Made by a program: the position numbers and the translations under genes. A stretch of DNA of 57,746 nucleotides from Spirochaetales bacterium (GTDB taxonomy: Bacteria; Spirochaetota; Spirochaetia; DAHUYW01). Below are positions 42,964-56,874 of this stretch, in pieces. The notes beneath the pieces were generated by a model. That model saw only the letters and a program-made list of their open reading frames with translations. It was not told the DNA's origin and made no database searches. The stretch is taken from NCBI GenBank assembly GCA_027314665.1, contig DAHVAK010000271.1:1-57746 (forward strand), read 5' to 3'. Each line of letters starts with the position of its first letter. The stretch's first letter is position 1.

Positions 42964-43003
42964 CAGGGTGCTGACAGAGTGATTGACCCGTCGCCAAAAC
43001 GGC
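42964..43003 (+). repeat. MITE-like element, left-arm fragment (half copy)
   Basis: CAGGGTGCTGACAGAGTGATTGACCCGTCGCCAAAACGGC matches the left arm of the full copies with a few substitutions and then diverges. There is no TA flank and no right arm. Confidence 0.65.
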
Positions 43004-43167
43004 AAATCGTTGATGCAGAGCGGTCATCGCGGCTCCTGCTCCGGGGGCGCGCTTCACTCTCCACGGCACGCGCTGCGCATTTTCCCTTTTTTCGATGCAA
43101 CCGGACAGACCAAGCCCCGGTATACAGGCGGTGACAGACCATTCCTGGTTCACAGAGGAGGTGTGCG

Positions 43168-44547: not shown

Positions 44548-44686
44548 ATCATTCTCCTTGCCCGACCGGGCGGGCCGATGTGCGGCTTGAAGCTGCGACC
44601 TTCGAGGTGTCGCAGAGGGCGCCTTGAACAGGTCTCTGCGTCACTCACGTGCGTCTATCGCCCGACACGCTTCAGTATTTCGCTAT

Positions 44687-44807
44687 CAGGGTGCTGACAA
44701 GGTGATTGACCCACTGCCAAAACGGCGTTTTCGGTTGTGTCTCTTGCCCCAAGGTGGTTGGAGAAAGCACCGTTTTGGGAGGTACCTTTTCGGTTGTCAG
44801 CACCCTG
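44687..44807 (+). repeat. MITE-like palindromic element, full copy B (121 bp)
   Basis: The element runs CAGGGTGCTGACAAGGTGATTGACCCACTGCCAAAACGGCGTTTTC...GAAAGCACCGTTTTGGGAGGTACCTTTTCGGTTGTCAGCACCCTG. TA flanks lie at 44684-44685 and 44809-44810. It sits between the SPFH gene and the 3' end of the integrase. Confidence 0.8.
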
Positions 44808-44924
44808 CTAGTCCCCTTTTCGGGCGCGGCGACGACATCCCCGGCGAGGGCCGGCGCGGCGCGTTTCGCGGCGTGCCGGCCATGGACGCGCGCCGCAGCA
44901 GCTCTCTGTGCGAAGACCGCTCAG

Positions 44925-45857
44925 TCATCTCTCGCCGCTGCTTTCTTCTGTTCCGCGAGCCGGCCCGTCCGGGAGGCCCTCGTTCACCTCTGCCGAGCCG
45001 CGCCGAGCTGCCTCGGATACGTCGATGAAGGCCTCGTGCGGCTTCAAGGTTGCATTGGTGTACATTCTCGCCGTGAGACCGGGATCTGCGTGACCCAGGG
45101 CAGCGGCTACGGCCCGGAGGTCCTTGCCTCGCTGGATCTGGATGCGCGCCCAGGTGTGGCGCAATTGGTGGGCCGTGACCTCCCGTCCAAGCGTCCGCAG
45201 CGATTCGTACTTGATCCTGTTCGTTACCGATATTCGGTTGAACGGCTTGCCGTGATGCTCGAAGAGATAGGTGGCGCCGTGGAAGTAGGTTCGGACATGC
45301 TCCACGAACTTGGTCTTGACGTGGACCACCCTTTCCTTGGCTCTTTTCCCCACGATGCGCACCTCGACGAAATCAACGTCCGCCGGCTGCAAATCGGTGA
45401 GTCGGATCGCCAACATTTCGGACACCCGCACGCCGGTACCGACGAGAAACTGGACCATGAGCCGAATTGTGTTGTCCTTTGTCTTTTCCACGAAATTGTG
45501 GACTTCCTCCACGCTGAGCACCTTTTCCGGCGGGACGGCGAGGCTGTCGATTCGCTTCGGTTTGACCTGCTTCAGCACCTCTTCGAGTTGATAGTTCTTG
45601 CGAAGACTCTCGGCGGAGGAGCTGTGCTTGAAGGCATAGCGGATTCGGCTCTTGGCGGCCGCGATCTTACGGTTGATCGTCGCCGGACTGTAGCGCCTTC
45701 CGTCGTGCTCTTCTTCAAGCCAGGCGGCATATTCCTTGAGCGCGTCCACCAACAGCAGGTCGCGCTCCTTCATGAACGTGATGAACTGCTTCACGTCGAG
45801 ATTGTACGCATCGCGAATTTCCTCGAGCTCCTTGAACACCTTCTCCTGCTCCGTCAT
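44925..45857 (-). CDS. tyrosine recombinase / phage-type integrase
   Basis: 310 aa from the ATG at 45857, which is preceded by AGGAGG. It has a SAM-like N-domain. The catalytic blocks are GTGVRVSEMLAIR (Arg), AHQLRHTWA (HxxR) and LGHADPGLTARMY (His...Tyr). The gene is visibly more A/T-rich than its neighbours. Confidence 0.88.
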   Translation of the reverse strand: MTEQEKVFKELEEIRDAYNLDVKQFITFMKERDLLLVDALKEYAAWLEEEHDGRRYSPATINRKIAAAKSRIRYAFKHSSSAESLRKNYQLEEVLKQVKPKRIDSLAVPPEKVLSVEEVHNFVEKTKDNTIRLMVQFLVGTGVRVSEMLAIRLTDLQPADVDFVEVRIVGKRAKERVVHVKTKFVEHVRTYFHGATYLFEHHGKPFNRISVTNRIKYESLRTLGREVTAHQLRHTWARIQIQRGKDLRAVAAALGHADPGLTARMYTNATLKPHEAFIDVSEAARRGSAEVNEGLPDGPARGTEESSGER

Positions 45858-46109
45858 GCCGCACGCCCCTCCTACTTTCTCTTCGCTCCAGGTACCCCAG
45901 AGATTTGCAGAACTATTATTTAGTAATGTAACAGATAAAGTAGGCAAAGTCAAGCCTTCTCGGCGCCGCGAAACCGACCTCCGGGTGTGCGCGCCGCGCA
46001 TTCGGCTCCGACCCCTTCGGGGAGTGCTGTCGCATAGAGGCGAAGGATCGACTCTCTCCGTGCCGCTCCACTCCTTTACCATGGTATCCTGATGCAACAG
46101 GGGGGTGAT

Positions 46110-46622
46110 ATGGTGAAGGACAAAGGATTTGTCGAGTCCCGAGAGGTGATTGAAGGGATGCTTCGTGGGGAGACGCTGGGATTCCTCGGACTGTCCGTGG
46201 ACGGTAGGCCCTATGTAGTCCCGCTCACCTACGGATACCTCGACGGCCGGATCCTCTTCCATGGCGCGCTATCCGGAAAGAAGCTCGACTGCATCAGAGC
46301 AAACCCGAACGTTTGCTTCACGGTCGGGCGTCAACGGGGCAAACTGGTTCGTCATCCGCAGGGCGCGCGCTGCCACGTGGCCAATGACAGCGCCATCTGC
46401 TATGGGGTCGCGCGAATACTGGAGGATGTGCAGGAGCGCCGAACGGCCCTGCAAGCCTTCAACCGCTGTCTCGAGCCCGACGCCGGAGAGATTACCTTCG
46501 AGGCGGCCGCACAGTGCTCTGCCGTCGAGATCAAGATCGCCGAGATGACGGGTCGACGGCAGCAAGGATCGAACTACGCCTTCTTTCGCTACGAGTTTGG
46601 AGACAAGGGCGCGCGAGCATAG
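46110..46622 (+). CDS. pyridoxamine 5'-phosphate oxidase family (NimA-like) flavoprotein
   Basis: The start ATG at 46110 follows GGGGG. The split-barrel blocks are LGFLGLSVDGRPYVVPLTYGYLDGRILFHGALSGKKL and NPNVCFTV. Confidence 0.75.
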   Translation: MVKDKGFVESREVIEGMLRGETLGFLGLSVDGRPYVVPLTYGYLDGRILFHGALSGKKLDCIRANPNVCFTVGRQRGKLVRHPQGARCHVANDSAICYGVARILEDVQERRTALQAFNRCLEPDAGEITFEAAAQCSAVEIKIAEMTGRRQQGSNYAFFRYEFGDKGARA

Positions 46623-46672
46623 GGGGGGGCGGAGGCTCTGGGGATCCCGGAGAGCCTTCCTCCACGGCAGGG

Positions 46673-48139
46673 CTACCGTTCCGGCTTCTGCTTCTCCTCG
46701 GCGCTGCGGTCGTCGAAGACGAGGGTCGCCTCACCGACGCGCAGCACGTCGCCGGGGCGCAGGTGCCGCCGCTGGGCGGGGCGATTGTTCACCATGACGG
46801 GTTCATCGCTCACGACCGTGAAGGTGCCGCTGCGCTGATCCTTCACGAGGGTCACCTGACTCGTCGCGGATTCTCGGTTTTTTTCCGAGTCTTCCTCTTC
46901 CGATGTGACAGTGACTCGATTGCTCGCGTCGAAGCCAATCACGGTCTTGCCCTCGTTGAGTGAGAACACCTTGGTCGAGCCTCCAGCGAGAATCTCCAGA
47001 TTTGCATCGCTTCGTCGGTTGAGAAATCGAGCCCTGCTGATGAGAAACCAGGCGAGTAGCGCGATCAGGAAGGGAACCACGAGAAGGGGGCTCAGTCTTC
47101 CGGCGGGGGGACCGAAGAGGGTTCCGACGAAGTAGTACTGCGAAGCCGACGATGTCCCGTCCGGTCCGTGATACTCGACCCGCACTTCCCTCCTGTCGCC
47201 GGCAAGCATTCTCGGCGAGTAGGTCAGTCGATACTCCTCCAGAACACTCCTTCGCACGGAAAGATAGACGCTTGCAAGCTCCTTCTCGCTGCGCGCGTCG
47301 AACACGCGTCCTCCGGTCGAGTGGGCGATCGTCTGAAGGTTGGCATCCGGGAGCGCGGGGCCAAACTGAATCGGGAAGACGGATATTCCCTCGCGAATGA
47401 GGACGCGCACCGCCTCCTCGCTGGAGACGAGGGCCGAGCCGAACTGCGGATTCGGCCTGCCGGTGTGGAGATAGTAGGGGAAGTTCTCCCCATCGGTCAG
47501 AAGGAGAATCACCTTGCGTCCCTTCCACCCGGAAAGAACCTGCGCGGCAGCCCGGAGCGAGGCATAGAGCTCCGTGAAGGAATCGGCCTCCGTGGGCCGG
47601 ACAATCCTCGCGAGCGCCGCTTCCATATCCGAGCGCAGACGTGTTGGAAGCGTCTCTACGCGATAGAGGGTGTTGAACGAGGCGAGCCCGATCCGGTCGG
47701 CAGGATTATCGACCGAATTGAGAAAGATGCGGATCGCGGAGCGCGCCGCCTCGATTCGGGTCTGGGGGCGCGCGCCGGCTGCGGAGGCGTCGAGGGGTTC
47801 GTACATGCTTCCGGAGTTGTCGACGAGCAGAAAGAAGGTCAACCCCTCGTTCGCCGGAGCTCCCTCGTGAAACGAGAAGTGCGCCACCGGGAGCAGCGGC
47901 CCGCCGGGTAGCCCCTCGGACATCGAGAAGTCGCCCGCTTCGAGCCCGGTCACTGCGTTCCCATTCGGCCCGGTCACTCCCACGTAGACGTCCACCTCCT
48001 GCCGGGTGAGAAGGCGCGAGGGATCAATCTGCGCGATTGTCGCCTGCTCCTGGGCGAAGGCGGGCGCCGCCGCCGCGAGAATCATGATCAAGGCCGCCAA
48101 AGCTGCCGCGGGCTTCACTCTCTTCTTCACGGGGCTCAT
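46673..48139 (-). CDS. secreted vWA domain / single TM / cytoplasmic FHA-like domain protein
   Basis: The ATG at 48139 lies 6 nt after TAGGAGG, which spans the upstream stop. The signal peptide is AALAALIMILAAAAPAFA. The vWA MIDAS block is FFLLVDNSGSM, with ILLLTDGENF. The TM helix is LLVVPFLIALLAWFLI. The C-terminus is divergent FHA-like (GKTVIGFDASNRVTV...VMVNNRPAQRRHLRPGDVLRVGEATLVF). Confidence 0.7.
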   Translation of the reverse strand: MSPVKKRVKPAAALAALIMILAAAAPAFAQEQATIAQIDPSRLLTRQEVDVYVGVTGPNGNAVTGLEAGDFSMSEGLPGGPLLPVAHFSFHEGAPANEGLTFFLLVDNSGSMYEPLDASAAGARPQTRIEAARSAIRIFLNSVDNPADRIGLASFNTLYRVETLPTRLRSDMEAALARIVRPTEADSFTELYASLRAAAQVLSGWKGRKVILLLTDGENFPYYLHTGRPNPQFGSALVSSEEAVRVLIREGISVFPIQFGPALPDANLQTIAHSTGGRVFDARSEKELASVYLSVRRSVLEEYRLTYSPRMLAGDRREVRVEYHGPDGTSSASQYYFVGTLFGPPAGRLSPLLVVPFLIALLAWFLISRARFLNRRSDANLEILAGGSTKVFSLNEGKTVIGFDASNRVTVTSEEEDSEKNRESATSQVTLVKDQRSGTFTVVSDEPVMVNNRPAQRRHLRPGDVLRVGEATLVFDDRSAEEKQKPER

Positions 48140-48149
48140 CTCTTGCCTC

Positions 48150-49130
48150 CTACTCACGTTTGTAGAGGAACTTCACCGCCCCGCACGCTATCACGTCGTC
48201 GAACTTCAAGGGGGCTCCCGCCTGCCGGGCGGCGCGAGCGGGCTGGAACTCGGCGGGCTGTCCACCCGCAATCCGCTCATCGTTCACCCGTACGCTGCCC
48301 TCCATGGGCTCGATGAATAGGTCGCGCCCCCGGGCGACGAGCCGGCAGTGCGCCTCGGCTATATCCCGATAGCCCAGTGAGCTTCCCGGTTGCACCAACT
48401 CCGGCGTGGCGCGCTTCTTCGCGGGGATGGGGATGTCGCAGCGGGCGCCGGAGCCGATGACCATCCTGCGCTGGTTGAGGATGTACTCCCGGCTCTTGAA
48501 GGGACCATTGAGGACCCTGAAAACCCCGAACGAAAGGCGCCTCTCGACAACGGCGTAGGCAAGGCCGATGAGGATCCCGAGCAAGAGCAAGCCCACGAGG
48601 TGCGCCACGGGAAAGGCGGGGAAGAAGAGCCGTCCGTACTCGATTGCCGCGCCGCCGAGGATGCCTCCGGTGAATCCCCCGAGGGCCCCGATGGCAATCT
48701 TTCGGGCCGACGACGAGCGGATGCCCGCCGCCGCCCCGACGCAGGCCCCCAGGATCCCCCAACCGACCGCCCGCGCTACCGGCATCGCGATGCTTTCCAC
48801 CCGGTGGAGGTTGCTCATGAGATAGTCGCCGACGAGGAAGAGGATCCCTTGGGCTGCGAGGAATCCCAGGGCGCCTCCGCCCGCCCCGACGACCCCTCCA
48901 ACGCCCGCCCCGAGCACGATGCGTCTCCTGCGCGAAGCGATGATCCCATCGGCTCCGCCGAGGAAGGCGCCGAAGATGAGCCCAAAGAGCGCACCCGAGA
49001 CGATCGAGTAGGCGAGATAGCTCGAAAAGTGCACCTGCAGGTGGATGAGCAGCTCCATCACCGGCCACGTCGCGAGGCCCGCGGAGATTCCGAGGGCAAG
49101 CTGTATGAGACGTCGAATGAGAATCGTCAT
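48150..49130 (-). CDS. multi-TM Gly-rich membrane protein with a C-terminal FHA-like domain
   Basis: It has 5-6 Gly/Ala-rich helices (GAFLGGADGIIA, GAGVGGVVGAGGGALGF, GALGGFTGGILGGAAI). These are followed by RRMVIGSGARCDIPI...AHCRLVARGRDLFIEPMEGSVRVNDERI. It is translationally coupled on both sides. Confidence 0.65.
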   Translation of the reverse strand: MTILIRRLIQLALGISAGLATWPVMELLIHLQVHFSSYLAYSIVSGALFGLIFGAFLGGADGIIASRRRRIVLGAGVGGVVGAGGGALGFLAAQGILFLVGDYLMSNLHRVESIAMPVARAVGWGILGACVGAAAGIRSSSARKIAIGALGGFTGGILGGAAIEYGRLFFPAFPVAHLVGLLLLGILIGLAYAVVERRLSFGVFRVLNGPFKSREYILNQRRMVIGSGARCDIPIPAKKRATPELVQPGSSLGYRDIAEAHCRLVARGRDLFIEPMEGSVRVNDERIAGGQPAEFQPARAARQAGAPLKFDDVIACGAVKFLYKRE

Positions 49131-49136
49131 CTGCCA

Positions 49137-51059
49137 TCACTCCAGAAGATCGGGTGCGCTCGCGTAGCCGCTACTGTCGAAGAGAATCTTGCCGGACTTG
49201 CGGTCCGCCACGATCCTCAGGCTCAGCCGCTCGAGCGGCAGCACGCTGAAGGCATACTGGCCCGAGAGCGCACCGCTGTGCACCGTGAGGGTGTGCGGAC
49301 CAGGGGCGAGGCGAAGCTCGGCTGCGCGCGCGCCGATCCGAGGTATCGCAGCGAGATGGGGGGTTCGGCCCCATTCGCGATAGGTGCCGGAACCATCGAG
49401 GTCGACGCTGACGGTGCCCGCGCCCGACGTGAGCTCGACCGCCCCAGGGTAGGGTACGAGGCTTGCGTCGATTCGGAGCTGGCTCTCAAACGGTCGGACC
49501 GCGAGGGCGTAGTCGGAGGGGTAGTATCCGTCGTGCGCAAAGCGAAATTGATAGGCCCCGCCTGAGCGCAGCGACGAGGCGACATCCCCGACAAAGGCCA
49601 CCCAGCTCCCGTTCGCATACAGCTCGACAGCCGTGCCGCCGGTGATCGTTTCTCCCCCGGCCGCCGATTCGACCCGAAACGATACAGAAAGGGGAAGGCT
49701 CGCCCCCTCATCGATCGATACGACGAGGCTTCGGCCCGCGCCGCCGCCGCCGGTCGCCCGCTGGTCGCGGCGGGACTCGAGGGTGAACCCCCGCCACACG
49801 AGCTGGTTCGAGGCCGCGACCTTGACCCGATACTGCCCGACGGGGAGGTAGAGCGGACGGCTCACGAAGACCTCGGTCTCCTGCGTGTTCTGCTCGCGGT
49901 CTACGTGGAAGACAAAGCGAGCCCCTTGCACGCGAGGAATCTCCTTTCCGTCGTCGCGGAACAGCTCCGCTGCAACATAGCGCTCCCGAGCCGGCAGGAG
50001 CCCGCGGGCAACGCGAACCGTCAGCACGAGCTCGCCGTAGCGATTGGGATAGAGAAGCTCGGAGGCAATCCCGCTTCGCAAGCCGTAGTAGGCTGCCCCG
50101 CCGCCGAGAAGCAACAAGGCGACGGCTACCGCAGCGACGGCGCCTCCGAGTCGGGAACGCTTTCTCGGCGGCGACCAGGTTCGGCTCAAGAACGAGGCGA
50201 TCTGGGTTCGCTGCTCTCCCGCCGCCCGCGACCCGAGTCGTCGGTCGAGCTTCTTCAACACGACGCAAAGGTCCTGGAAACGCCGCGTCCGCTTCGCGCT
50301 CATCGCCTTGCGAATCAATCGAGCGGTGAAGCGCGTAATGGCGGGGTTGTGTGTCCTAGGCCTTCGGTATTTCCCGTGCTGGATGGCCTTGAGAGTCTCG
50401 GGTGTGACGGAACCGGGGAAGGGCCGCTTGCCGGTCATCATCTCGTAGAGCATCACCCCGAGGGAGTAGATGTCGGCGCGCTTGTCGACGCTTCGGGTGT
50501 CCTGGAACTGCTCGGGGGCCATGTAGGACGGCGTGCCGAGGATCGTACCCTCACGGGTGAGATCCGCTTCATTCTCGTCGTCGATGTGCGCAATGCCGAA
50601 GTCGACGAGCTTGACGTCGCCTCGGCGTGAAAGGAGGATGTTGCCTGGTTTGATATCCCGATGGATGACGCCGCGATCGTGGGCGTACTTCAGGGCGCGG
50701 CAGCAGTCGCGGAAGATGAGGAGCGCTACCCACTCGGGGAGGTATCGCTCGCGCTGCAGAAGCTGGGAGAGGGAAATCCCATCGACGTATTCCTGAACGA
50801 TGTAGTAGGCGGGTCCCTCGCGAAAATGGTCGAAGACGTCGACGATGTACTCGTTGCGGAAGTCCATCATGATGGAGGCCTCTCGCCGGAAGCGCTCGCG
50901 CACGGCCGCACTTCCGCGCAGGGTGAGCTTCTTGATGGTCACGGTCCGGTCGAGAGTCGGGTGTGCGGCGGTGTACACCGCGCCCATTCCCCCTCGCGCA
51001 ATCTCGGAGATAACCTTGTATTTTCCAATAGTCTCAGGCGGTCGGGCCATCGTTTGCAT
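49137..51059 (-). CDS. Hanks-type Ser/Thr protein kinase with a TM helix and an extracytoplasmic beta-rich (PEGA-like) region
   Basis: The kinase motifs are GGMGAVY, VTIKKL, HRDIKPGNILL, DFGIAH and GTPSYMAPEQ. The TM helix is AVAAVAVALLLLGGGAAYYGL. About 300 aa of C-terminus carries PEGA-like repeats (GAYQFRFAHDGYYPSDYALAV). Confidence 0.9.
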   Translation of the reverse strand: MQTMARPPETIGKYKVISEIARGGMGAVYTAAHPTLDRTVTIKKLTLRGSAAVRERFRREASIMMDFRNEYIVDVFDHFREGPAYYIVQEYVDGISLSQLLQRERYLPEWVALLIFRDCCRALKYAHDRGVIHRDIKPGNILLSRRGDVKLVDFGIAHIDDENEADLTREGTILGTPSYMAPEQFQDTRSVDKRADIYSLGVMLYEMMTGKRPFPGSVTPETLKAIQHGKYRRPRTHNPAITRFTARLIRKAMSAKRTRRFQDLCVVLKKLDRRLGSRAAGEQRTQIASFLSRTWSPPRKRSRLGGAVAAVAVALLLLGGGAAYYGLRSGIASELLYPNRYGELVLTVRVARGLLPARERYVAAELFRDDGKEIPRVQGARFVFHVDREQNTQETEVFVSRPLYLPVGQYRVKVAASNQLVWRGFTLESRRDQRATGGGGAGRSLVVSIDEGASLPLSVSFRVESAAGGETITGGTAVELYANGSWVAFVGDVASSLRSGGAYQFRFAHDGYYPSDYALAVRPFESQLRIDASLVPYPGAVELTSGAGTVSVDLDGSGTYREWGRTPHLAAIPRIGARAAELRLAPGPHTLTVHSGALSGQYAFSVLPLERLSLRIVADRKSGKILFDSSGYASAPDLLE

Positions 51060-52155
51060 CCTCGGGAGCGCTTAGCTCGATAACATCGCGCGTAAGCTCG
51101 GCGGTACGGTCCGCGGCGAGCAGCGCCATTATATACCGGGACGGGTTATGGATCTGGACGTACCTCCCCCCTGCGCGGAGACTATACCTTCCCCTGACTG
51201 CACGGTGGCCGCCGAAATGAAAGGCCGTTGGAGCCTCGCTTGGATCGAGGTAGTGTTCGAGCATCCGATCCACCGCGTCCGTTTCGGCTTGGTCGTTGTC
51301 GGTCCAGGTCAGGCCGTAGATCACCTCGTCGCGACCGCGATACTCGATCACCTCTTCGCGCGAAAAGAAGCGCGCGGGCTCAGCGTGGCTGATGAGGTAG
51401 TGGGGGCCGATCGCGAGGAGGGGAAGCCGCTTCTCGAACTCAGAGACTCGCGCGATAAGCTGCTCGGTGTAGAATAGGCGAAGGTACTCGAGAACCATTG
51501 CACCCTCATACGCGTACTTGCCGAAGGGACGATTTCCGGCTCCCGTCTCGTTGGCGATGTTTTCGTGATTCCCCTTAAGCAGGTGGATGCGAGTCGGCGC
51601 GGCCGACTTAAGCGCTGCAATCATCATGAGCACCGCAAGGCCTTCGGTCATTTCCCCGTCCATCGCCTCGTGCAAGGCGAAGCCGTCCGAGAACTCGGTG
51701 AGTGCGCGCCTCCATCGCTCCCTCACCCGACCCTCGCCGTGCAAGTAGTCCCCGAGACAGACAAGCTGGATCGAGCCGGCAAGGATCCCTTCGAGAACCG
51801 TGGCGGAATCCGGCAGAACGTAGCTCAAGGCGGCCCAAATGAGGCCTGGGCGCGCGTGGATGTCAGGCAGAAGAACGGTCGGGAGATCTCGATCGAGCAC
51901 GACGAGCCCACCCGGCTCCCTGAAGCGGTCGAGCGGACGAATGGTCTCGTGCTCCGAGGCGAGGACGCTGTTGACCGTGCGGAGCGCCTCATCGAGTGCC
52001 GATGGGGAGGGGACGGTTCGCGCCGATCGATACCCATCGAGCTGCTCTCGAAGCGAGGGGGGAACCCTTTGCGGCTCACTCACCGGAAGGCTGCCCTTCG
52101 CCGATCCGACACGATCGCCCTCACTCGGCGACGACCGTCTTGTTGACTTCCACAA
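51034..52155 (-). CDS. PPP-family metallophosphoesterase (likely Ser/Thr phosphatase)
   Basis: The motifs are LLPDIHARP (DxH), LGDYLHGEG (GD) and LLKGNHEN (GNHE). The start is uncertain: the TTG at 52155 overlaps the upstream gene by 35 nt, and the GTG at 52083 is an alternative. The 3' end overlaps the kinase start. Confidence 0.8.
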   Translation of the reverse strand: MWKSTRRSSPSEGDRVGSAKGSLPVSEPQRVPPSLREQLDGYRSARTVPSPSALDEALRTVNSVLASEHETIRPLDRFREPGGLVVLDRDLPTVLLPDIHARPGLIWAALSYVLPDSATVLEGILAGSIQLVCLGDYLHGEGRVRERWRRALTEFSDGFALHEAMDGEMTEGLAVLMMIAALKSAAPTRIHLLKGNHENIANETGAGNRPFGKYAYEGAMVLEYLRLFYTEQLIARVSEFEKRLPLLAIGPHYLISHAEPARFFSREEVIEYRGRDEVIYGLTWTDNDQAETDAVDRMLEHYLDPSEAPTAFHFGGHRAVRGRYSLRAGGRYVQIHNPSRYIMALLAADRTAELTRDVIELSAPEDANDGPTA

Positions 52156-52651
52156 AGTCCTCGCTCAAGATCTGGGTGGCTTCGCTCAAGCGCTCCAGTT
52201 CCTCCTTCGGCTCGAGGCGCTCCGTAAGAACTGCGATCTTGAAGACCGCCGAGCTCTTTCGAATCGGTCCCTTGGAAAAAACGACAGGCTCGTCGATGCG
52301 GATATCCTCCGCAAGCGAGGCGCTCTTGTCGCCGGCGCTCTTGGGAACATCCTGCCGCAGCTCGATGGAGGCATACTCCGCCGGTCGCTTGCCCCCGACG
52401 AGCGGACCGAGGGTGAGCAGGGAGCCCGAATAGGTCATCACGAGCGCACCTCGGTCCTCCTCCTTTGCGAACTCGTCCCATTCCTCCATGTGAAACTCGC
52501 TGATTCGCGCCTCGAAGGCATTTCGTTTCTCGAGCCAGGCCTGCGCTATCCGTTCGACGGACTCATCGGTTTCGGGAAGCCCCGAGCTTGCCGTGATGCT
52601 CTTGATGTGATCGCGGACATGTTCGGGTATCTGACTCATGTACTCACCCAT
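52121..52651 (-). CDS. unknown protein (176 aa), first gene of the kinase operon, paralog of the N-terminal domain of 52859..53746
   Basis: MGEYMSQIPEHVRDHIKSITASSGLPETDESVERIAQAWLEKRNAFEARI... I recognise no family. It is clearly similar to the divergently transcribed neighbour. Confidence 0.7.
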   Translation of the reverse strand: MGEYMSQIPEHVRDHIKSITASSGLPETDESVERIAQAWLEKRNAFEARISEFHMEEWDEFAKEEDRGALVMTYSGSLLTLGPLVGGKRPAEYASIELRQDVPKSAGDKSASLAEDIRIDEPVVFSKGPIRKSSAVFKIAVLTERLEPKEELERLSEATQILSEDFVEVNKTVVAE

Positions 52652-52858
52652 CGAAACTCCTCCGCGCCGTCGCGTGCCCCCCGCCAGAGACGGCCCATTG
52701 AGTGGTAAGATATCCCGTCAAACCTGCGAAATCAGTCCGGCGGCGCCCGGCCTGCATGGGCGCTCATGCCTGCAGGGCCCCCGCCCACTGCCGTACCCGC
52801 GCCGGGGCTCAGGCGAAAGGGGCGGGTGATCCAGCCGTTTGGTGCTATCCTAGAGCCT

Positions 52859-53746
52859 ATGGTCTATTCTGAGGAATACCTGCGGCAGCTGCTCACGGAT
52901 CGGGTCAAACGCCACCTCGAGTCGATCACCGAGTCGTCGGGCCTGCCTCCCGGCCGGGAGTCGCTTGATCGCATCACCGCGAACTGGCTCGAAAAGCGGC
53001 GGCTCTTCGAGGATCAGATTCGGCTGTTGGGAATGGAGATGCCGAGCGAGCTCGCGCAAGAGGACGCACGGGGAGTCGTTCTTCTCACCTATTCAGGCTC
53101 GCTCGTCGCCCTCGGGCGCGCCGGGCAGCAGGGGCGATGGTTCGAATACGCGAGCATCAAGCTGCGCAATGACGTTCCGGGCCTCGTGAAAGCGAGCGGG
53201 GTCACCGTCCAGGGACGGATTGCGATCGACGCTCCGGTCCACTTCGGCAGCTGCCCCATCGAGCGCTCCTCCGATGTGCTTCTCATCGGGGTCTGCCCCT
53301 CGAGGCTCGAGCAAGCGGAAGAGGACAGGCGGCTTCGCGAGGCCACCGTGTTTCTCACGAACGGATTCGTCAAGCTCAACCGAACTCTCACGATTCCCGA
53401 TGATGCGATCGGTCATTTCACCATGAAGAGCATGGTTCAGTACCTCGCAAAAAAACACGAGATAGCGCAGACCCTCACCCGAGAGCTTCTCGACGACTAC
53501 CTGACGATGATCGAAGCCGGGGCCCTGATGGGCGAAAGCGTGCCCCTCGGGAACCTCGGACACCTGCGCCTTGCCAGGCGCCCGGCCCAGAAGGCGCGCG
53601 TCGGACGCAATCCTGCCACGGGCGGCGAGATGACGATTCCGGCGAGACCCGAAGCCTTCGTGCCGCGAATGTCCTTCAGCGCCCGCCTGAAGGAGCGCGC
53701 GGCGTCGCTGCCTCTTCCTGAAGGCGACGGACCCTCCCTCGAGTAG
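52859..53746 (+). CDS. unknown N-terminal domain fused to a C-terminal HU/IHF-type DNA-binding domain
   Basis: Start at the ATG at 52859. Residues 1-180 are paralogous to 52121..52651. Residues ~189-281 match the HU fold signature (MKSMVQYLAKKHEIAQTLTRELLDDYLTMIEAGALMGESVPLGNLGHLRLARRPAQKARVGRNPATGGEMTIPARPEAFVPRMSFSARLKERA), and GRNPxTGxxxxIPA is the HU beta-arm motif. Confidence 0.75.
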   Translation: MVYSEEYLRQLLTDRVKRHLESITESSGLPPGRESLDRITANWLEKRRLFEDQIRLLGMEMPSELAQEDARGVVLLTYSGSLVALGRAGQQGRWFEYASIKLRNDVPGLVKASGVTVQGRIAIDAPVHFGSCPIERSSDVLLIGVCPSRLEQAEEDRRLREATVFLTNGFVKLNRTLTIPDDAIGHFTMKSMVQYLAKKHEIAQTLTRELLDDYLTMIEAGALMGESVPLGNLGHLRLARRPAQKARVGRNPATGGEMTIPARPEAFVPRMSFSARLKERAASLPLPEGDGPSLE

Positions 53747-53822
53747 GCGCATCCCGCCCGCGCGAGCCCGCCTTCCATTCCTGTCACGGAGTGATATACT
53801 CTGCGGAGAGGAGTCGGCATCC

Positions 53823-54170
53823 ATGGATGACACGATCTACAAGAGAAGCCCCGAGGGCAAGGAAATCGCTCGCGGATCGGAGATGAGGCAGCTGTGTCTC
53901 CGCTTCCGTGATCGCACGATCGAGATGGCGAAGACCGTTCGTATCGGAAGAGACGAGAACAACGACGTCGTGATTTCGGATGACCCGCTCGTCTCGCGGC
54001 GTCACGCCATCATCGAGCACATCGACGGCGGGTATCGGCTCAGGGACCTCGGGAGCACGAACCAGACCTACCTCAACAACAACCCCCTTCCGGCGCAGAC
54101 GAGCGTGGCGGTCAAGAGCGGCGATATCATTACGATCGGGCATACGCAGCTGAAGCTCTCGCGGCTCTGA
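53823..54170 (+). CDS. small stand-alone FHA domain protein (115 aa)
   Basis: It carries canonical FHA motifs: VRIGRDENNDVVISDDPLVSRRHAIIEHIDGGYRLRDLGSTNQTYLNNNPL...GDIITIGHTQLKL. Confidence 0.85.
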   Translation: MDDTIYKRSPEGKEIARGSEMRQLCLRFRDRTIEMAKTVRIGRDENNDVVISDDPLVSRRHAIIEHIDGGYRLRDLGSTNQTYLNNNPLPAQTSVAVKSGDIITIGHTQLKLSRL

Positions 54171-54204
54171 CCAGCGATGGGGAGCCCCCTTCGAGGAAAG
54201 AAGA

Positions 54205-54801
54205 ATGGCGAATAGACCGTCTGCCCGAAAGACGCCGGCAAGGAAAACCGCTTCAGAGAGAAAGAAGCCTGCTCCCACGAAGGCTGCGGCCTCAAGGAAG
54301 GCAGCGAAACCCCTATCGGCGCGGGACAAGCTCTCGGATGAGCTTGTCAGCATGCTGCCGGAAATCGACGCGGAGGGCTTGCTGTTTCTAATTCGCCAGG
54401 CCAATGTCCTGCTGCATAACAAGCGGGTCGATGAGCTGAATGCCGAAACGGAAAGGCTGAACAAGCACGGAAAGGAGGCGCGCAAGAAGGCCGGGACTAC
54501 CGCACGGGTCGGGCAGACCGTCGAGGAGATCACCGTCGAAATTCAGAAGTCCCCTGATGCCAAGACCTACTACGTCATCGTGGATGAGCAGAAGCATTTC
54601 TTCACCGCCGAGGAGATGGGGGCGGTGGTGAAGCTCTGCTTCAAGCCCGAACGGAAAAGCGAAGCCCTGCGCTATCTGCATCAGTTCATGAATAACGAAC
54701 GCAGGGAAGTCTTAATGGATCACGGTGTCTCCACCGAGAAGCATCCGTTTTTCGAAGCCCTTTTCTACGAAGTGCGCTCCAAGTTCACTCTCGATCGTTG
54801 A
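54205..54801 (+). CDS. unknown protein with a histone-H1-like Lys/Ala/Pro-rich N-terminal tail
   Basis: The tail is MANRPSARKTPARKTASERKKPAPTKAAASRKAAKPLSARDK. It is followed by a ~150 aa globular region from a family I do not recognise. The gene lies 34 nt downstream of the FHA gene on the same strand. Confidence 0.6.
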   Translation: MANRPSARKTPARKTASERKKPAPTKAAASRKAAKPLSARDKLSDELVSMLPEIDAEGLLFLIRQANVLLHNKRVDELNAETERLNKHGKEARKKAGTTARVGQTVEEITVEIQKSPDAKTYYVIVDEQKHFFTAEEMGAVVKLCFKPERKSEALRYLHQFMNNERREVLMDHGVSTEKHPFFEALFYEVRSKFTLDR

Positions 54802-54862
54802 TCCGCCTGCATACTCCCGTCCGGACACCCCTACGAACAATCCCATCGCATCAAGATCCGTT

Positions 54863-56056
54863 CTACTCGAGCGCCTGGTAGGCGAGCTGCGCAAAGTCAT
54901 CCACGAGCGGTAGCGTGAAGGCGGGCATGTACTGCGTCATGAGCAGACAGAGCAGCCCCTCCGACGGATCGACCCACCACTCCGTGTTGGCAGCGCCGCC
55001 CCAACCGAACCTCCCGACCGAGCCGGGTTGGTGGAGGAGGCCTGGGCGAAGCAGGACCGATCCGCCGAGCCCGAAGCCGTTCGCGGGGTTTCCGTGAGCG
55101 GCTATGCCCTCGGGCAGGTGATTCTGCATCATCCACTCTACGGTCTTGCGTCCGAGAAGGCGAACACCGTCAAGCTCTCCCTGGTTGAGCATCATCTGTC
55201 CGAACCGGAAGTAGTCGGCCACGGTGGAAACGAGGCCGCCGCCGCCGGAGGGATTCCTCGTCGGCCGGGCGTAGCGACTCCCTTCCGGGCGCTCGATCGG
55301 TTTGAGCCCGCCCCCTTCCGCCGTGCCGTAGACGGTCGCGAGCCTGTCAATCTTTTCCGGCGGGACCCAGAAGGAGGTGTCGACCATTCCAAGCGGGTCG
55401 AATATCCGTTCCTTGAGAAAGGCGTCGAAGGGTTTTCCGGAGGCGAGCTGCACGATGTAGCCGAGGACGTCGATGGACACGCTGTAGCGATACGCGCTGC
55501 CGGGGCTGAAGGCGAGCGGAAGCTTGGTGAGAAGGTTGATCATATCCTCGAGGGTGGCGTTAGGGTTCGCCTCGACCTGAGCCCAGAGCTCTTTGCGATA
55601 CATCTCATCCAGCACGGAATGCTCGTCGAAGCCGTAGCTCAGGCCGCTCGTGTGGGTGAAGAGGTCGTGTACGATCATCTCGCGCTTGCAGGGGATGAGC
55701 TCATAGTCGCACTCGTTTCGCGCAACGATGACCCGCGCGTTCTTGAACTCGGGAATGTAGCGAGACACCGGATCGCTGACGCGGAGCTTGCCCTCTTCGA
55801 CGAGCATCATGGCCGCAACGCTCGTGATGGGCTTCGACATCGAATAGATTCGAAAGATCGTGTCGAGCTCCATCGTCCGCGTGTTCTCCTTGTCCTTGAA
55901 GCCGAAATTCTGAAGGTAGGCCACCTCGCCCTCGCGTGCTATCAAGACAATGACGCCGGCGAATTGCCCGCGGTCGACGTATCCCTGCATGACCGGTCTG
56001 ATCCGCTCTAGGCGCAGAGACGACAGCCCCACTCGTTCAGGATCGACGATCTTCAT
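54863..56056 (-). CDS. serine hydrolase, beta-lactamase/transpeptidase-fold (class C / EstB-like)
   Basis: The SxxK nucleophile block is IYSMSKPITS, followed by a YSVS (Tyr motif) region. There is no signal peptide. Confidence 0.8.
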   Translation of the reverse strand: MKIVDPERVGLSSLRLERIRPVMQGYVDRGQFAGVIVLIAREGEVAYLQNFGFKDKENTRTMELDTIFRIYSMSKPITSVAAMMLVEEGKLRVSDPVSRYIPEFKNARVIVARNECDYELIPCKREMIVHDLFTHTSGLSYGFDEHSVLDEMYRKELWAQVEANPNATLEDMINLLTKLPLAFSPGSAYRYSVSIDVLGYIVQLASGKPFDAFLKERIFDPLGMVDTSFWVPPEKIDRLATVYGTAEGGGLKPIERPEGSRYARPTRNPSGGGGLVSTVADYFRFGQMMLNQGELDGVRLLGRKTVEWMMQNHLPEGIAAHGNPANGFGLGGSVLLRPGLLHQPGSVGRFGWGGAANTEWWVDPSEGLLCLLMTQYMPAFTLPLVDDFAQLAYQALE

Positions 56057-56649: not shown

Positions 56650-56693
56650 GCCTCGGTTTCTCCACACCCCCTTTTCAAGAGAAGGCCCATTAA

Positions 56694-56812
56694 CAGGGTG
56701 CTGACAAAGTGATTGACCCGCTGCCAAAACGGCGTTTTCTATGGTTTCTTGCCCGAAACTGGTTCGTGAAAACGCCGTCTTGGCAGGTACCTTTGAGTTT
56801 GTCAGCACCCTG
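56694..56812 (+). repeat. MITE-like palindromic element, full copy C (119 bp)
   Basis: The element runs CAGGGTGCTGACAAAGTGATTGACCCGCTGCCAAAACGGCGTTTTC-loop-GAAAACGCCGTCTTGGCAGGTACCTTTGAGTTTGTCAGCACCCTG. TA flanks lie at 56691-56692 and 56814-56815. It begins 44 nt after the mscL stop. Confidence 0.85.
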
Positions 56813-56874
56813 TTAAGGCGAAACGTAAAATCGGAAAGTACCCGAATCCGGCCAAGCAAGAAGGGAGGAAGGCT

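Follow-up and report, generated by a model that had tools for sequence, protein, structure and literature searches.

The window examined here, a stretch of 57,746 nucleotides from a Spirochaetales bacterium (GenBank assembly GCA_027314665.1, contig DAHVAK010000271.1, positions 1 to 57,746, forward strand), carries a compact cluster of genes combining forkhead-associated (FHA) domains and von Willebrand factor A (vWA) domains with a Hanks-type Ser/Thr kinase and a putative PPP-family phosphatase. The sequence-only reading from which this work started had described eight open reading frames (ORFs) in two divergent arms, and all eight are present. The minus arm begins with a protein of 176 amino acids that we call U176 (52121-52651), and then encodes a divergent PPP-like metallophosphatase (51034-52155; maximal ORF 373 amino acids), the kinase (49137-51059), a 326 amino acid protein with a six-helix, Gly-rich membrane domain and a cytoplasmic FHA-like domain (TM-FHA; 48150-49130), and a 494 amino acid protein with a signal peptide, a periplasmic vWA domain, a single transmembrane (TM) helix, and a cytoplasmic FHA-like domain (vWA-FHA; 46673-48157). 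As had been noted, the minus-arm frames overlap or abut; for example, TM-FHA shares 8 nt with vWA-FHA, and only 6 nt separate the kinase from TM-FHA. On the plus strand lie a fusion of a U176-like domain (U) to an HU domain (U-HU; 52859-53746, 295 amino acids counted from the ATG at 52859, the ORF opening at 52766), a small canonical FHA protein of 115 amino acids (FHA115; 53823-54170), and a 198 amino acid protein with an H1-like tail (54205-54801). The arms diverge from an intergenic control region (52652-52858) that separates U176 from U-HU.

One genome per GTDB species was scanned for related loci, and the best 80 of the 91 found were kept; family alignments were built from homologs extracted from 85 related loci, and the window proteins were also compared with the loci by tblastn. 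All 80 kept loci are from Spirochaetota (labeled Spirochaetales, Treponematales, or Leptospirales), mostly metagenome-assembled genomes (MAGs) plus that of Alkalispirochaeta alkalica DSM 8900. The conserved unit consists of six genes: U176, the PPP-like phosphatase, the kinase, TM-FHA, vWA-FHA, and the divergently transcribed U-HU. The phosphatase gene directly follows U176 in 60 of the 75 loci that could be judged, and in six more with overlapping starts; in nine of the 75 it is missing and the kinase gene comes directly after U176. The kinase, TM-FHA, and vWA genes are colinear in 44 of the 47 loci long enough to judge, the other three being rearranged or below the detection threshold. Of 73 loci, 52 have U-HU as the divergent neighbor of U176; it lies elsewhere in the locus in three, and was not seen in 18. 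Six-gene colinearity extends over dozens of species, down to 37-45% identity, and the identity of each component to its window protein co-varies with that of U176 (r = 0.79-0.90), as expected of a unit that is inherited together. The neighborhood comparison that the sequence-only reading had called for therefore finds these six genes co-conserved well outside this strain and far beyond chance, and clustering of all flanking ORFs yielded no recurrent family other than the small FHA protein. Judged from these comparisons, the cluster appears to be a vertically inherited, Spirochaetota-specific chromosomal module. In the most divergent locus (L001; U176 37% identical, no PPP gene), the gene just upstream of U176, in the same orientation, encodes a PilZ-domain protein (L001 9623-9967).

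Kinase, phosphatase, and membrane proteins

The kinase matches the Pfam Pkinase family at 7e-52, and its catalytic Lys, HRD, DFG, and APE are conserved in 40 homologs. Hydropathy analysis indicates a cytoplasmic kinase domain (residues 1-275), one TM segment (~304-322), and a beta-rich ectodomain of ~310 amino acids (~330-640), which is poorly conserved and is indeed the least conserved part of the protein. This ectodomain had been described as PEGA-like. There is no Pfam match to it in the window protein, but weak PEGA or CarboxypepD_reg matches (best 24.7 bits) were obtained in the C-terminal part in four of eight homologs; the description is thus weakly supported.

Pfam returned the other families that had been predicted for the cluster (VWA, Pkinase, FHA for the 115 amino acid protein, and Bac_DNA_binding), but the Metallophos match of the phosphatase, at 5.8e-4 and 20.8 bits, fell just under the 21.5-bit cut-off. 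A profile of 13 phosphatase sequences gave 49 PDB matches, every one a PPP Ser/Thr phosphatase, with BSU1 the best (1.2e-4), followed by PP1, PP5, and PP2A; the E-values are weak (1.2e-4 to 0.75) and the matches are centered on the GNHE region. D74, H76, D112, N172, H233, and H293, together with GNHEN, are invariant in 13 diverse homologs, and these residues were aligned with PP1 D64, H66, D92, N124, H173, and H248 by motif order and not from a solved structure. Motif II reads GDxxHxE instead of GDxVDRG. With a profile that matches PPP Ser/Thr phosphatases only and six invariant positions in line with the metal ligands, the earlier PPP assignment is supported, and the protein is best described as a divergent PPP-like metallophosphatase with putative protein-phosphatase activity. 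Its homologs align only from residue 25-49 onwards, and its true start is probably at or below 52083.

The vWA-FHA protein matches VWA_2 (5e-14) and VWA (3.5e-13), and its metal ion-dependent adhesion site (MIDAS; DNSGS...T...D) is intact, the corresponding residues being invariant across 50 homologs. Its hydrophobic segments span residues 17-35 and 355-373, with a basic stretch after the TM helix; because a signal peptide precedes and a TM helix follows the vWA domain, that domain is predicted to be periplasmic. In the AlphaFold2 (AF2) model of the whole TM-FHA protein (predicted local distance difference test score, pLDDT, 84), a beta domain comes after six long helices. Together, hydropathy and this model agree with the signal peptide, single TM segments, and Gly-rich multi-TM N-terminus proposed earlier, and they give a predicted topology in which the vWA domain and the kinase ectodomain are periplasmic, and the kinase domain and both membrane-anchored FHA-like domains are cytoplasmic. 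The six-TM domain itself had no significant structural match by Foldseek, where Wzx, TRIC, and ClC appeared at E > 0.02.

Pfam gives only weak matches to the two membrane FHA-like domains, the best being to the cytoplasmic domain of the type III secretion system (T3SS) protein YscD, or else to FHA. The family profile of the vWA-FHA C-terminus, however, matches the FHA domain of Rv0020c (FhaA) at 8e-7, and that of TM-FHA matches the FHA domains of GarA and OdhI at 2.9e-10. The TM-FHA beta domain of the AF2 model superposes by Foldseek on the OdhI, GarA, and FhaA FHA structures with target-normalized TM scores of 0.8-0.87 and root mean square deviations of 1.8-2.4 Å; structures of YscD and PscD were also among the Foldseek matches of the model. 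Similarity of the TM-FHA profile to ArnA (5a8i; E = 0.0024) is remote and at the level of the FHA fold only. On the strength of the profile matches to the GarA and Rv0020c FHA domains and, for TM-FHA, of the superposition, both C-terminal domains are real FHA folds; the two divergent FHA-like calls, like the HU call discussed below, thus survive profile searches. They are not, however, evident phosphothreonine readers. The canonical phosphothreonine-binding Arg after the conserved Gly is found in 1 of 52 TM-FHA and in 0 of 50 vWA-FHA sequences, and the Ser three residues before the conserved His in 10 of 52 TM-FHA sequences. Both folds appear from their sequences to be degenerate, of the kind seen in T3SS YscD and PscD. 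The cluster had been credited with three phosphothreonine readers; three FHA folds are indeed present, but two lack the Arg, and TM-FHA mostly also the Ser, and there is therefore one canonical reader, not three.

TM-FHA and vWA-FHA belong together, because in three species they are a single polypeptide: an ORF of 759-772 amino acids (L028 13200-15506; L047 13466-15784; L050 13218-15497), one of them from A. alkalica DSM 8900, with the consistent topology of six TM helices, degenerate FHA, TM, vWA, TM, and degenerate FHA. Remote TM-FHA relatives outside the spirochaete family also adjoin vWA genes, one of them in a cluster with multiple kinases and PP2C. Another, in L089 (7453-10525; 26% identity), directly follows the gene for an extracytoplasmic function (ECF) sigma factor and precedes a vWA gene, with overlapping frames; this arrangement suggests that TM-FHA and vWA together are able to act as a membrane module of an anti-sigma-like kind.

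The U domain and its partners

U176 and the N-terminal 175 residues of U-HU are 46% identical (E = 3e-44) and are thus paralogous, as had been claimed. U176 has no Pfam, NCBIfam, or PADLOC match, and U has no PDB sequence match, whether searched as a single sequence or as a family profile. The AF2 model of U176 (pLDDT 91, predicted TM score 0.87) shows an eight-stranded beta core flanked by two helices at the N-terminus and by one long helix at the C-terminus, and the best Foldseek match of this model in the PDB had E = 0.08, with query-normalized TM scores of at most 0.25. A PH-like, Sm, p32, or Bet v 1 fold was rejected, as all query-normalized TM scores were ≤0.25 and there was no PDB sequence match; a divergent FHA domain was likewise rejected, the hhalign probability against an FHA profile being 0.1%. 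Invariant residues of U include H15, W39, the hairpin T73-Y-S75-G-S77, R89, Y93, R99, D116, and G128-P129. Homologs of U176 form 106 clusters in a set of 5.8 billion proteins, and all members with a named source are Spirochaetota; a U profile search of 1.84 billion representatives gave 205 matches, in two main length classes of ~176 and ~280-305 amino acids. U is thus a new protein domain, restricted to Spirochaetota, whose confidently predicted fold has no counterpart in the PDB.

In U-HU, the HU/IHF domain that had been assigned to the U fusion is clear: Bac_DNA_binding matches ORF residues 219-311 at 4.5e-11 (43.3 bits versus a 22.4-bit cut-off), and the beta-arm motif (R-N-P-x-T-G type) is visible in the translation as GRNPATGGEMTIPA. 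Homologs and the sequence itself make the ATG at 52859, not the position at 52766, the most likely start, and the 52652-52858 spacer proposed earlier is therefore reproduced. In this spacer, conserved blocks, a ribosome-binding site, and the start codons align with those of the four closest relatives. The blocks read CTGAxT ... GGGATAT[CG][TA]T upstream of U176 and GTG[ACT]TA 10-12 nt before the U-HU ATG; a further ~100 nt of the spacer, rich in GC, is found in this window only. A scan for consensus sigma-70 promoters found no site across the cluster (46400-55000), spacer included. The 12 terminator-like matches in the same interval all lie outside the spacer and are about twice as many as in shuffled sequence (mean 6.2, sd 2.4), and Rfam detected no riboswitch or small RNA in the cluster.

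The C-terminal output attached to U is interchangeable: it may be absent, HU, DUF2442 (in P0118), or a new helical domain of ~120 amino acids with the motif DLFEKWIIL.WFR (in P0213 and P0204), which has no Pfam match and also forms the C-terminus of P0166. The last is a 701 amino acid protein found on eight contigs (for instance L086/L087 8001-10106) with the architecture signal peptide, vWA, TM, U, and helical domain, U thus standing where vWA-FHA has its degenerate FHA fold. Directly before P0166 lies a TM-FHA gene, a HAMP-guanylate cyclase gene also precedes it, and there is no kinase or PPP gene within 8 kb. A 7TMR-DISM/SpoIIE (PP2C) gene occurs 2 kb downstream of P0166 on the opposite strand. 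Because P0166 joins vWA-TM to U in the place of the degenerate FHA fold, U is linked to the membrane vWA and TM-FHA proteins. From the fusions as a whole we infer that TM-FHA and vWA-FHA form one membrane complex, that U acts at the cytoplasmic face of this complex, and that U is an adaptor or receiver with interchangeable outputs.

FHA115 matches Pfam FHA at 1.9e-21, with invariant GR, SxxH, and STN motifs, and to judge by these residues it is the sole canonical phosphothreonine reader of the cluster. In NCBIfam it matches NF049868 FhaB at 2.6e-14, which is under the cut-off of that model, and TIGR03354 VI_FHA below threshold. It is linked in only five to six related loci, in all of them as the immediate neighbor of U-HU, with order and orientation differing between loci; one genome has the U-HU/FHA115 pair relocated jointly to the far end of the kinase arm. 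Residues 1-9 (window 53823-53850) contain the motif [DE][DE]-T-[IV]-Y-K-R, ~35 residues before the FHA domain and present in five of six homologs; by analogy, and as a hint only, it recalls the phosphothreonine self-binding switch of GarA and OdhI.

Neighboring genes and repeats

The H1-tailed protein had been counted as a cluster member, and this was rejected, since its gene is missing from all related loci, the closest relative included (tblastn), and its homologs occur in unrelated contexts. In that closest relative (U176 80% identical), a radical-SAM gene follows the small FHA gene in its place. The protein has an N-terminal tail rich in Ala, Pro, Lys, and Arg (14 Lys or Arg among its first 45 residues), and its globular C-terminus is conserved. 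No Pfam or NCBIfam family includes it, and it has no significant PADLOC match (JetC is marginal, E = 0.006). Its own spirochaetal family, for which no Pfam match is recorded, is well conserved (30 clusters, 58-83% identity), and the only member with a named source is a Spirochaetales MAG. As these relatives sit in unrelated neighborhoods, the protein is a bystander, which may be nucleoid-associated in its own right.

The sequence-only reading also drew on a nearby tyrosine integrase and on two miniature inverted-repeat transposable element (MITE) copies bordering the cluster. The recombinase (44925-46262, minus strand; Phage_integrase 2.7e-22) is a 445 amino acid ORF that probably starts internally near MTEQEK, at ~45857. 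A Pyridox_ox_2 gene (176 amino acids, 46092-46622) lies between it and the cluster on the opposite strand. The integrase was not found in any of the 85 related loci, PNPOx-like and beta-lactamase-like genes are likewise never present in them, and there is no tRNA near the integrase. The repeat is palindromic, ~125 nt long, with terminal inverted repeats CAGGGTGCTGACAA ... TTGTCAGCACCCTG, and looks like a MITE or a repetitive extragenic palindromic (REP)-like element of this genome. It occurs four times in 57 kb in the same orientation (1435-1560, 42964-43090, 44684-44815, and 56691-56815); the copies at 44684 and 56691, compared end to end, are intergenic and 81-88% identical. The four dispersed copies are not a border pair, and the integrase is no conserved companion of the cluster; an integrated island bounded by MITEs was accordingly rejected. 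GC content is unremarkable, and elsewhere in the window the genes have ordinary chromosomal functions. Given the unconserved flanks, the dispersed repeat, the lack of a nearby tRNA, the GC content, and these surroundings, the cluster is a core chromosomal module and not an island.

Interpretation and comparison with known systems

On balance, we consider it somewhat probable that the cluster is a transmembrane Ser/Thr phosphosignaling module with an HU output, vertically inherited and specific to Spirochaetota. In such a module, a periplasmic or envelope cue would be sensed by the vWA MIDAS site, by the variable kinase ectodomain, or by both. The degenerate FHA folds would be phospho-independent scaffolds, like that of T3SS YscD, on which the kinase and U proteins assemble at the membrane. 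The kinase would phosphorylate itself together with U-domain proteins and/or FHA115, FHA115 would read the phosphothreonine mark, and the PPP-like enzyme would reset the system. The net output would be altered DNA binding by the HU moiety of U-HU, with U176 acting as partner or competitor of its paralog. The output step has precedents: DNA binding by M. tuberculosis HupB is lowered by Ser/Thr protein kinase (STPK) phosphorylation, according to PMC4754617, which cites Gupta 2014, and phosphorylation of D. radiodurans HU by a Hanks kinase controls its DNA binding (PMC9900698). What stands of the phosphothreonine-signaling proposal is thus a real, co-conserved cluster of membrane kinase, PPP eraser, vWA-FHA, and HU proteins; the conflict role, the three readers, and the H1-tailed member do not.

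Several points weigh against this signaling module. Phosphorylation of the U domain is purely conjectural; its invariant T-Y-S-G-S hairpin is no more than a candidate acceptor site, and the Gly at the +3 position is not that of a typical FHA ligand. Activity of the phosphatase on proteins is deduced from weak profile matches. Neither a kinase nor a PPP gene lies within 8 kb of P0166, so the core of vWA, TM-FHA, and U can operate kinase-free. Some loci lack the PPP gene (9 of 75) or U-HU (18 of 73), and neither is therefore obligatory. The small FHA protein, moreover, is linked in only the few loci given above. A more specific proposal, which we advance only tentatively, is that U is a signal receiver or adaptor, the spirochaete counterpart of a two-component receiver domain, which would dock on the cytoplasmic side of the vWA/six-TM sensor complex, be switched by the kinase and phosphatase, and drive interchangeable outputs.

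Loss of the phosphothreonine-binding residues from the membrane FHA folds, whose best Pfam match is the T3SS YscD cytoplasmic domain and whose Foldseek matches include YscD and PscD, would also fit a different role for these proteins, namely as structural or scaffold parts of an envelope-spanning assembly (adhesion, motility, or cell envelope; compare YscD, or GltG and CglB of Myxococcus gliding), with the kinase and phosphatase regulating assembly and U and U-HU being secondary or providing feedback. Weak NCBIfam hints to gliding proteins (CglB for the vWA, E = 0.098; GltG for FHA115, 1.2e-7) point the same way, as do the kinase-less variant, which keeps TM-FHA and vWA, and the unrelated locus joining this pair to an ECF sigma factor, which marks it as a portable membrane module. 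However, no conserved secretion, motility, or envelope machine genes lie beside the cluster, the U proteins are its most tightly linked partners and in one variant are fused to the vWA protein, and the HU fusion is present in most loci, all of which make this reading rather unlikely. It is of course possible to read adjacency alone into a locus where the H1-tailed, integrase, PNPOx, and beta-lactamase-like genes are strain-specific neighbors, and to suppose that independent FHA, vWA, kinase, and HU genes met fortuitously. This is refuted by the conservation of six colinear genes in dozens of species, down to 37-45% identity, and by component fusions and overlapping reading frames, and we give it practically no credence.

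The conflict role raised by the sequence-only reading would make the cluster an anti-phage or inter-organismal system in which a threat sensor is coupled to a kinase relay, like the vWA-MoxR ternary or Esr systems. In composition it does recall Esr and the threat-sensing modules of Aravind type that join vWA, kinase, and FHA (PMC13622651, PMC7159879); the PADLOC kinase models PD-T4-6 and mad6 match the kinase strongly, the kinase ectodomain is the part least conserved, and a tyrosine integrase and repeats lie nearby in the window. Nevertheless, the PADLOC-DB 2.0 matches are generic, being confined to the kinase catalytic domain, apart from the marginal JetC match (E = 0.006) of the unlinked H1-tailed protein, and the other six proteins have none. 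Neither a MoxR or STAND NTPase nor an effector nuclease or toxin is present; GC content is unremarkable; conservation of the cluster never extends to the integrase, the MITE, or the remaining flanking genes, and the repeat is present in four dispersed copies. Confinement to one phylum, with co-varying divergence and stable gene order, is the opposite of the patchy horizontal pattern typical of defense islands. A defense or conflict system was therefore rejected, and we hold it to be very improbable.

Signal transduction in spirochaetes is poorly understood beyond chemotaxis and a few two-component systems. The phosphosignaling module that we favor, conserved in free-living Spirochaetales, Treponematales, and Leptospirales-labeled genomes, would constitute a self-contained pathway with sensor, writer, eraser, reader, and DNA-binding output, and A. 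alkalica DSM 8900 is a cultured carrier. Should U turn out to serve generally as an adaptor that links vWA/FHA-fold modules of the membrane to variable outputs, this would widen what is known of the grammar of Ser/Thr signaling in bacteria, and there would be a direct handle on the phosphorylation control of nucleoid proteins. U-HU would, for its part, be an HU variant of an unusual, regulated kind. If U is a receiver, its fusion to HU would let an envelope signal in spirochaetes act directly, in a single step, on nucleoid architecture and on transcription globally.

Database sources label the cluster proteins only as "hypothetical" or "FHA domain-containing", and none names the set. The literature searched, on this gene set and on Hanks-kinase/FHA signaling in spirochaetes, contained neither a description of the cluster nor a spirochaete Hanks-kinase pathway with a defined output; the gene set, earlier put forward as a candidate undescribed system, is thus undescribed in the papers covered. 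The accompanying claim that no described system shares such logic, with the type VI secretion system (T6SS) threonine-phosphorylation pathway the closest, does not hold. The combination of vWA, FHA, Hanks kinase, and phosphatase is a recurring and already known one, and two systems are compositionally closer. In the Sulfolobus Arn system, FHA, vWA, Hanks kinase, and PPP phosphatase proteins control gene expression (PMC6509490, PMC7472852); like the cluster, Arn (ArnA ZnF-FHA, ArnB vWA, ArnC/ArnD, PP2A) uses a PPP-family enzyme and not PP2C, and its output is gene expression through an FHA protein with a zinc finger of nucleic acid-binding type (PMC6509490, PMC7472852, PMC10470591). Arn, however, occurs in archaea, its FHA ligand is the phosphorylated vWA protein itself, which is cytoplasmic, and no single conserved operon holds its genes, whereas in the cluster the vWA domain is predicted to be periplasmic, two degenerate FHA folds are membrane-anchored, HU is fused to a new domain, and Pfam detects no zinc-finger domain in any of the proteins. 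The DRA0331-DRA0334 operon of Deinococcus radiodurans (vWA, STPK, FHA, and KI-FHA-PP2C; bioRxiv 10.64898/2026.01.23.701218) resembles the cluster in being a bacterial operon in which a vWA protein and a Hanks kinase go with an FHA protein of canonical type and a phosphatase of their own, in a push-pull arrangement; it differs in having a PP2C with its own FHA domain, in lacking U, an HU fusion, and a six-TM FHA protein, and in belonging to another phylum.

In the T6SS pathway of PpkA, PppA, and Fha1, too, a Hanks kinase in the membrane goes with a vWA domain in the periplasm, a phosphatase, and an FHA reader of the canonical kind, but the vWA domain is within the kinase and not a separate protein, PppA is a PP2C, and the output is assembly of a secretion machine rather than a DNA-binding protein. 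As had been stated, no T6SS genes, such as the core genes for Tss, Hcp, and VgrG, are present, neither in the flanks of the window cluster nor in the related loci whose genes were listed. The vWA-MoxR ternary and actinobacterial Esr systems resemble the cluster in combining a vWA protein, a paired kinase and phosphatase, and an FHA output protein whose effector or DNA-binding domains vary (PMC7159879, PMC13622651). Their defining features are a partner NTPase of the MoxR AAA+ or STAND type and sensors or effectors that vary, none of which is in the cluster; no AAA+ or NTPase domain was detected by Pfam or NCBIfam in the eight proteins, or in recurrent neighbors. The mycobacterial FhaA/FhaB(FipA)-PstP-PknA/PknB cluster also pairs membrane-anchored and soluble FHA proteins with a phosphatase and receptor kinases, yet its phosphatase is a PP2C, it has no vWA protein, it is linked to rodA and pbpA, and its FHA domains are canonical. 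HupB, for its part, differs from U-HU in having no dedicated regulatory-domain fusion and in not being encoded with kinases. Overall, the cluster works like the known vWA/FHA/kinase/phosphatase systems while fitting the defining features of none of them, and what is new in it is the U domain, the U-HU fusion, the paired degenerate FHA membrane scaffolds, and the divergent PPP-like eraser.

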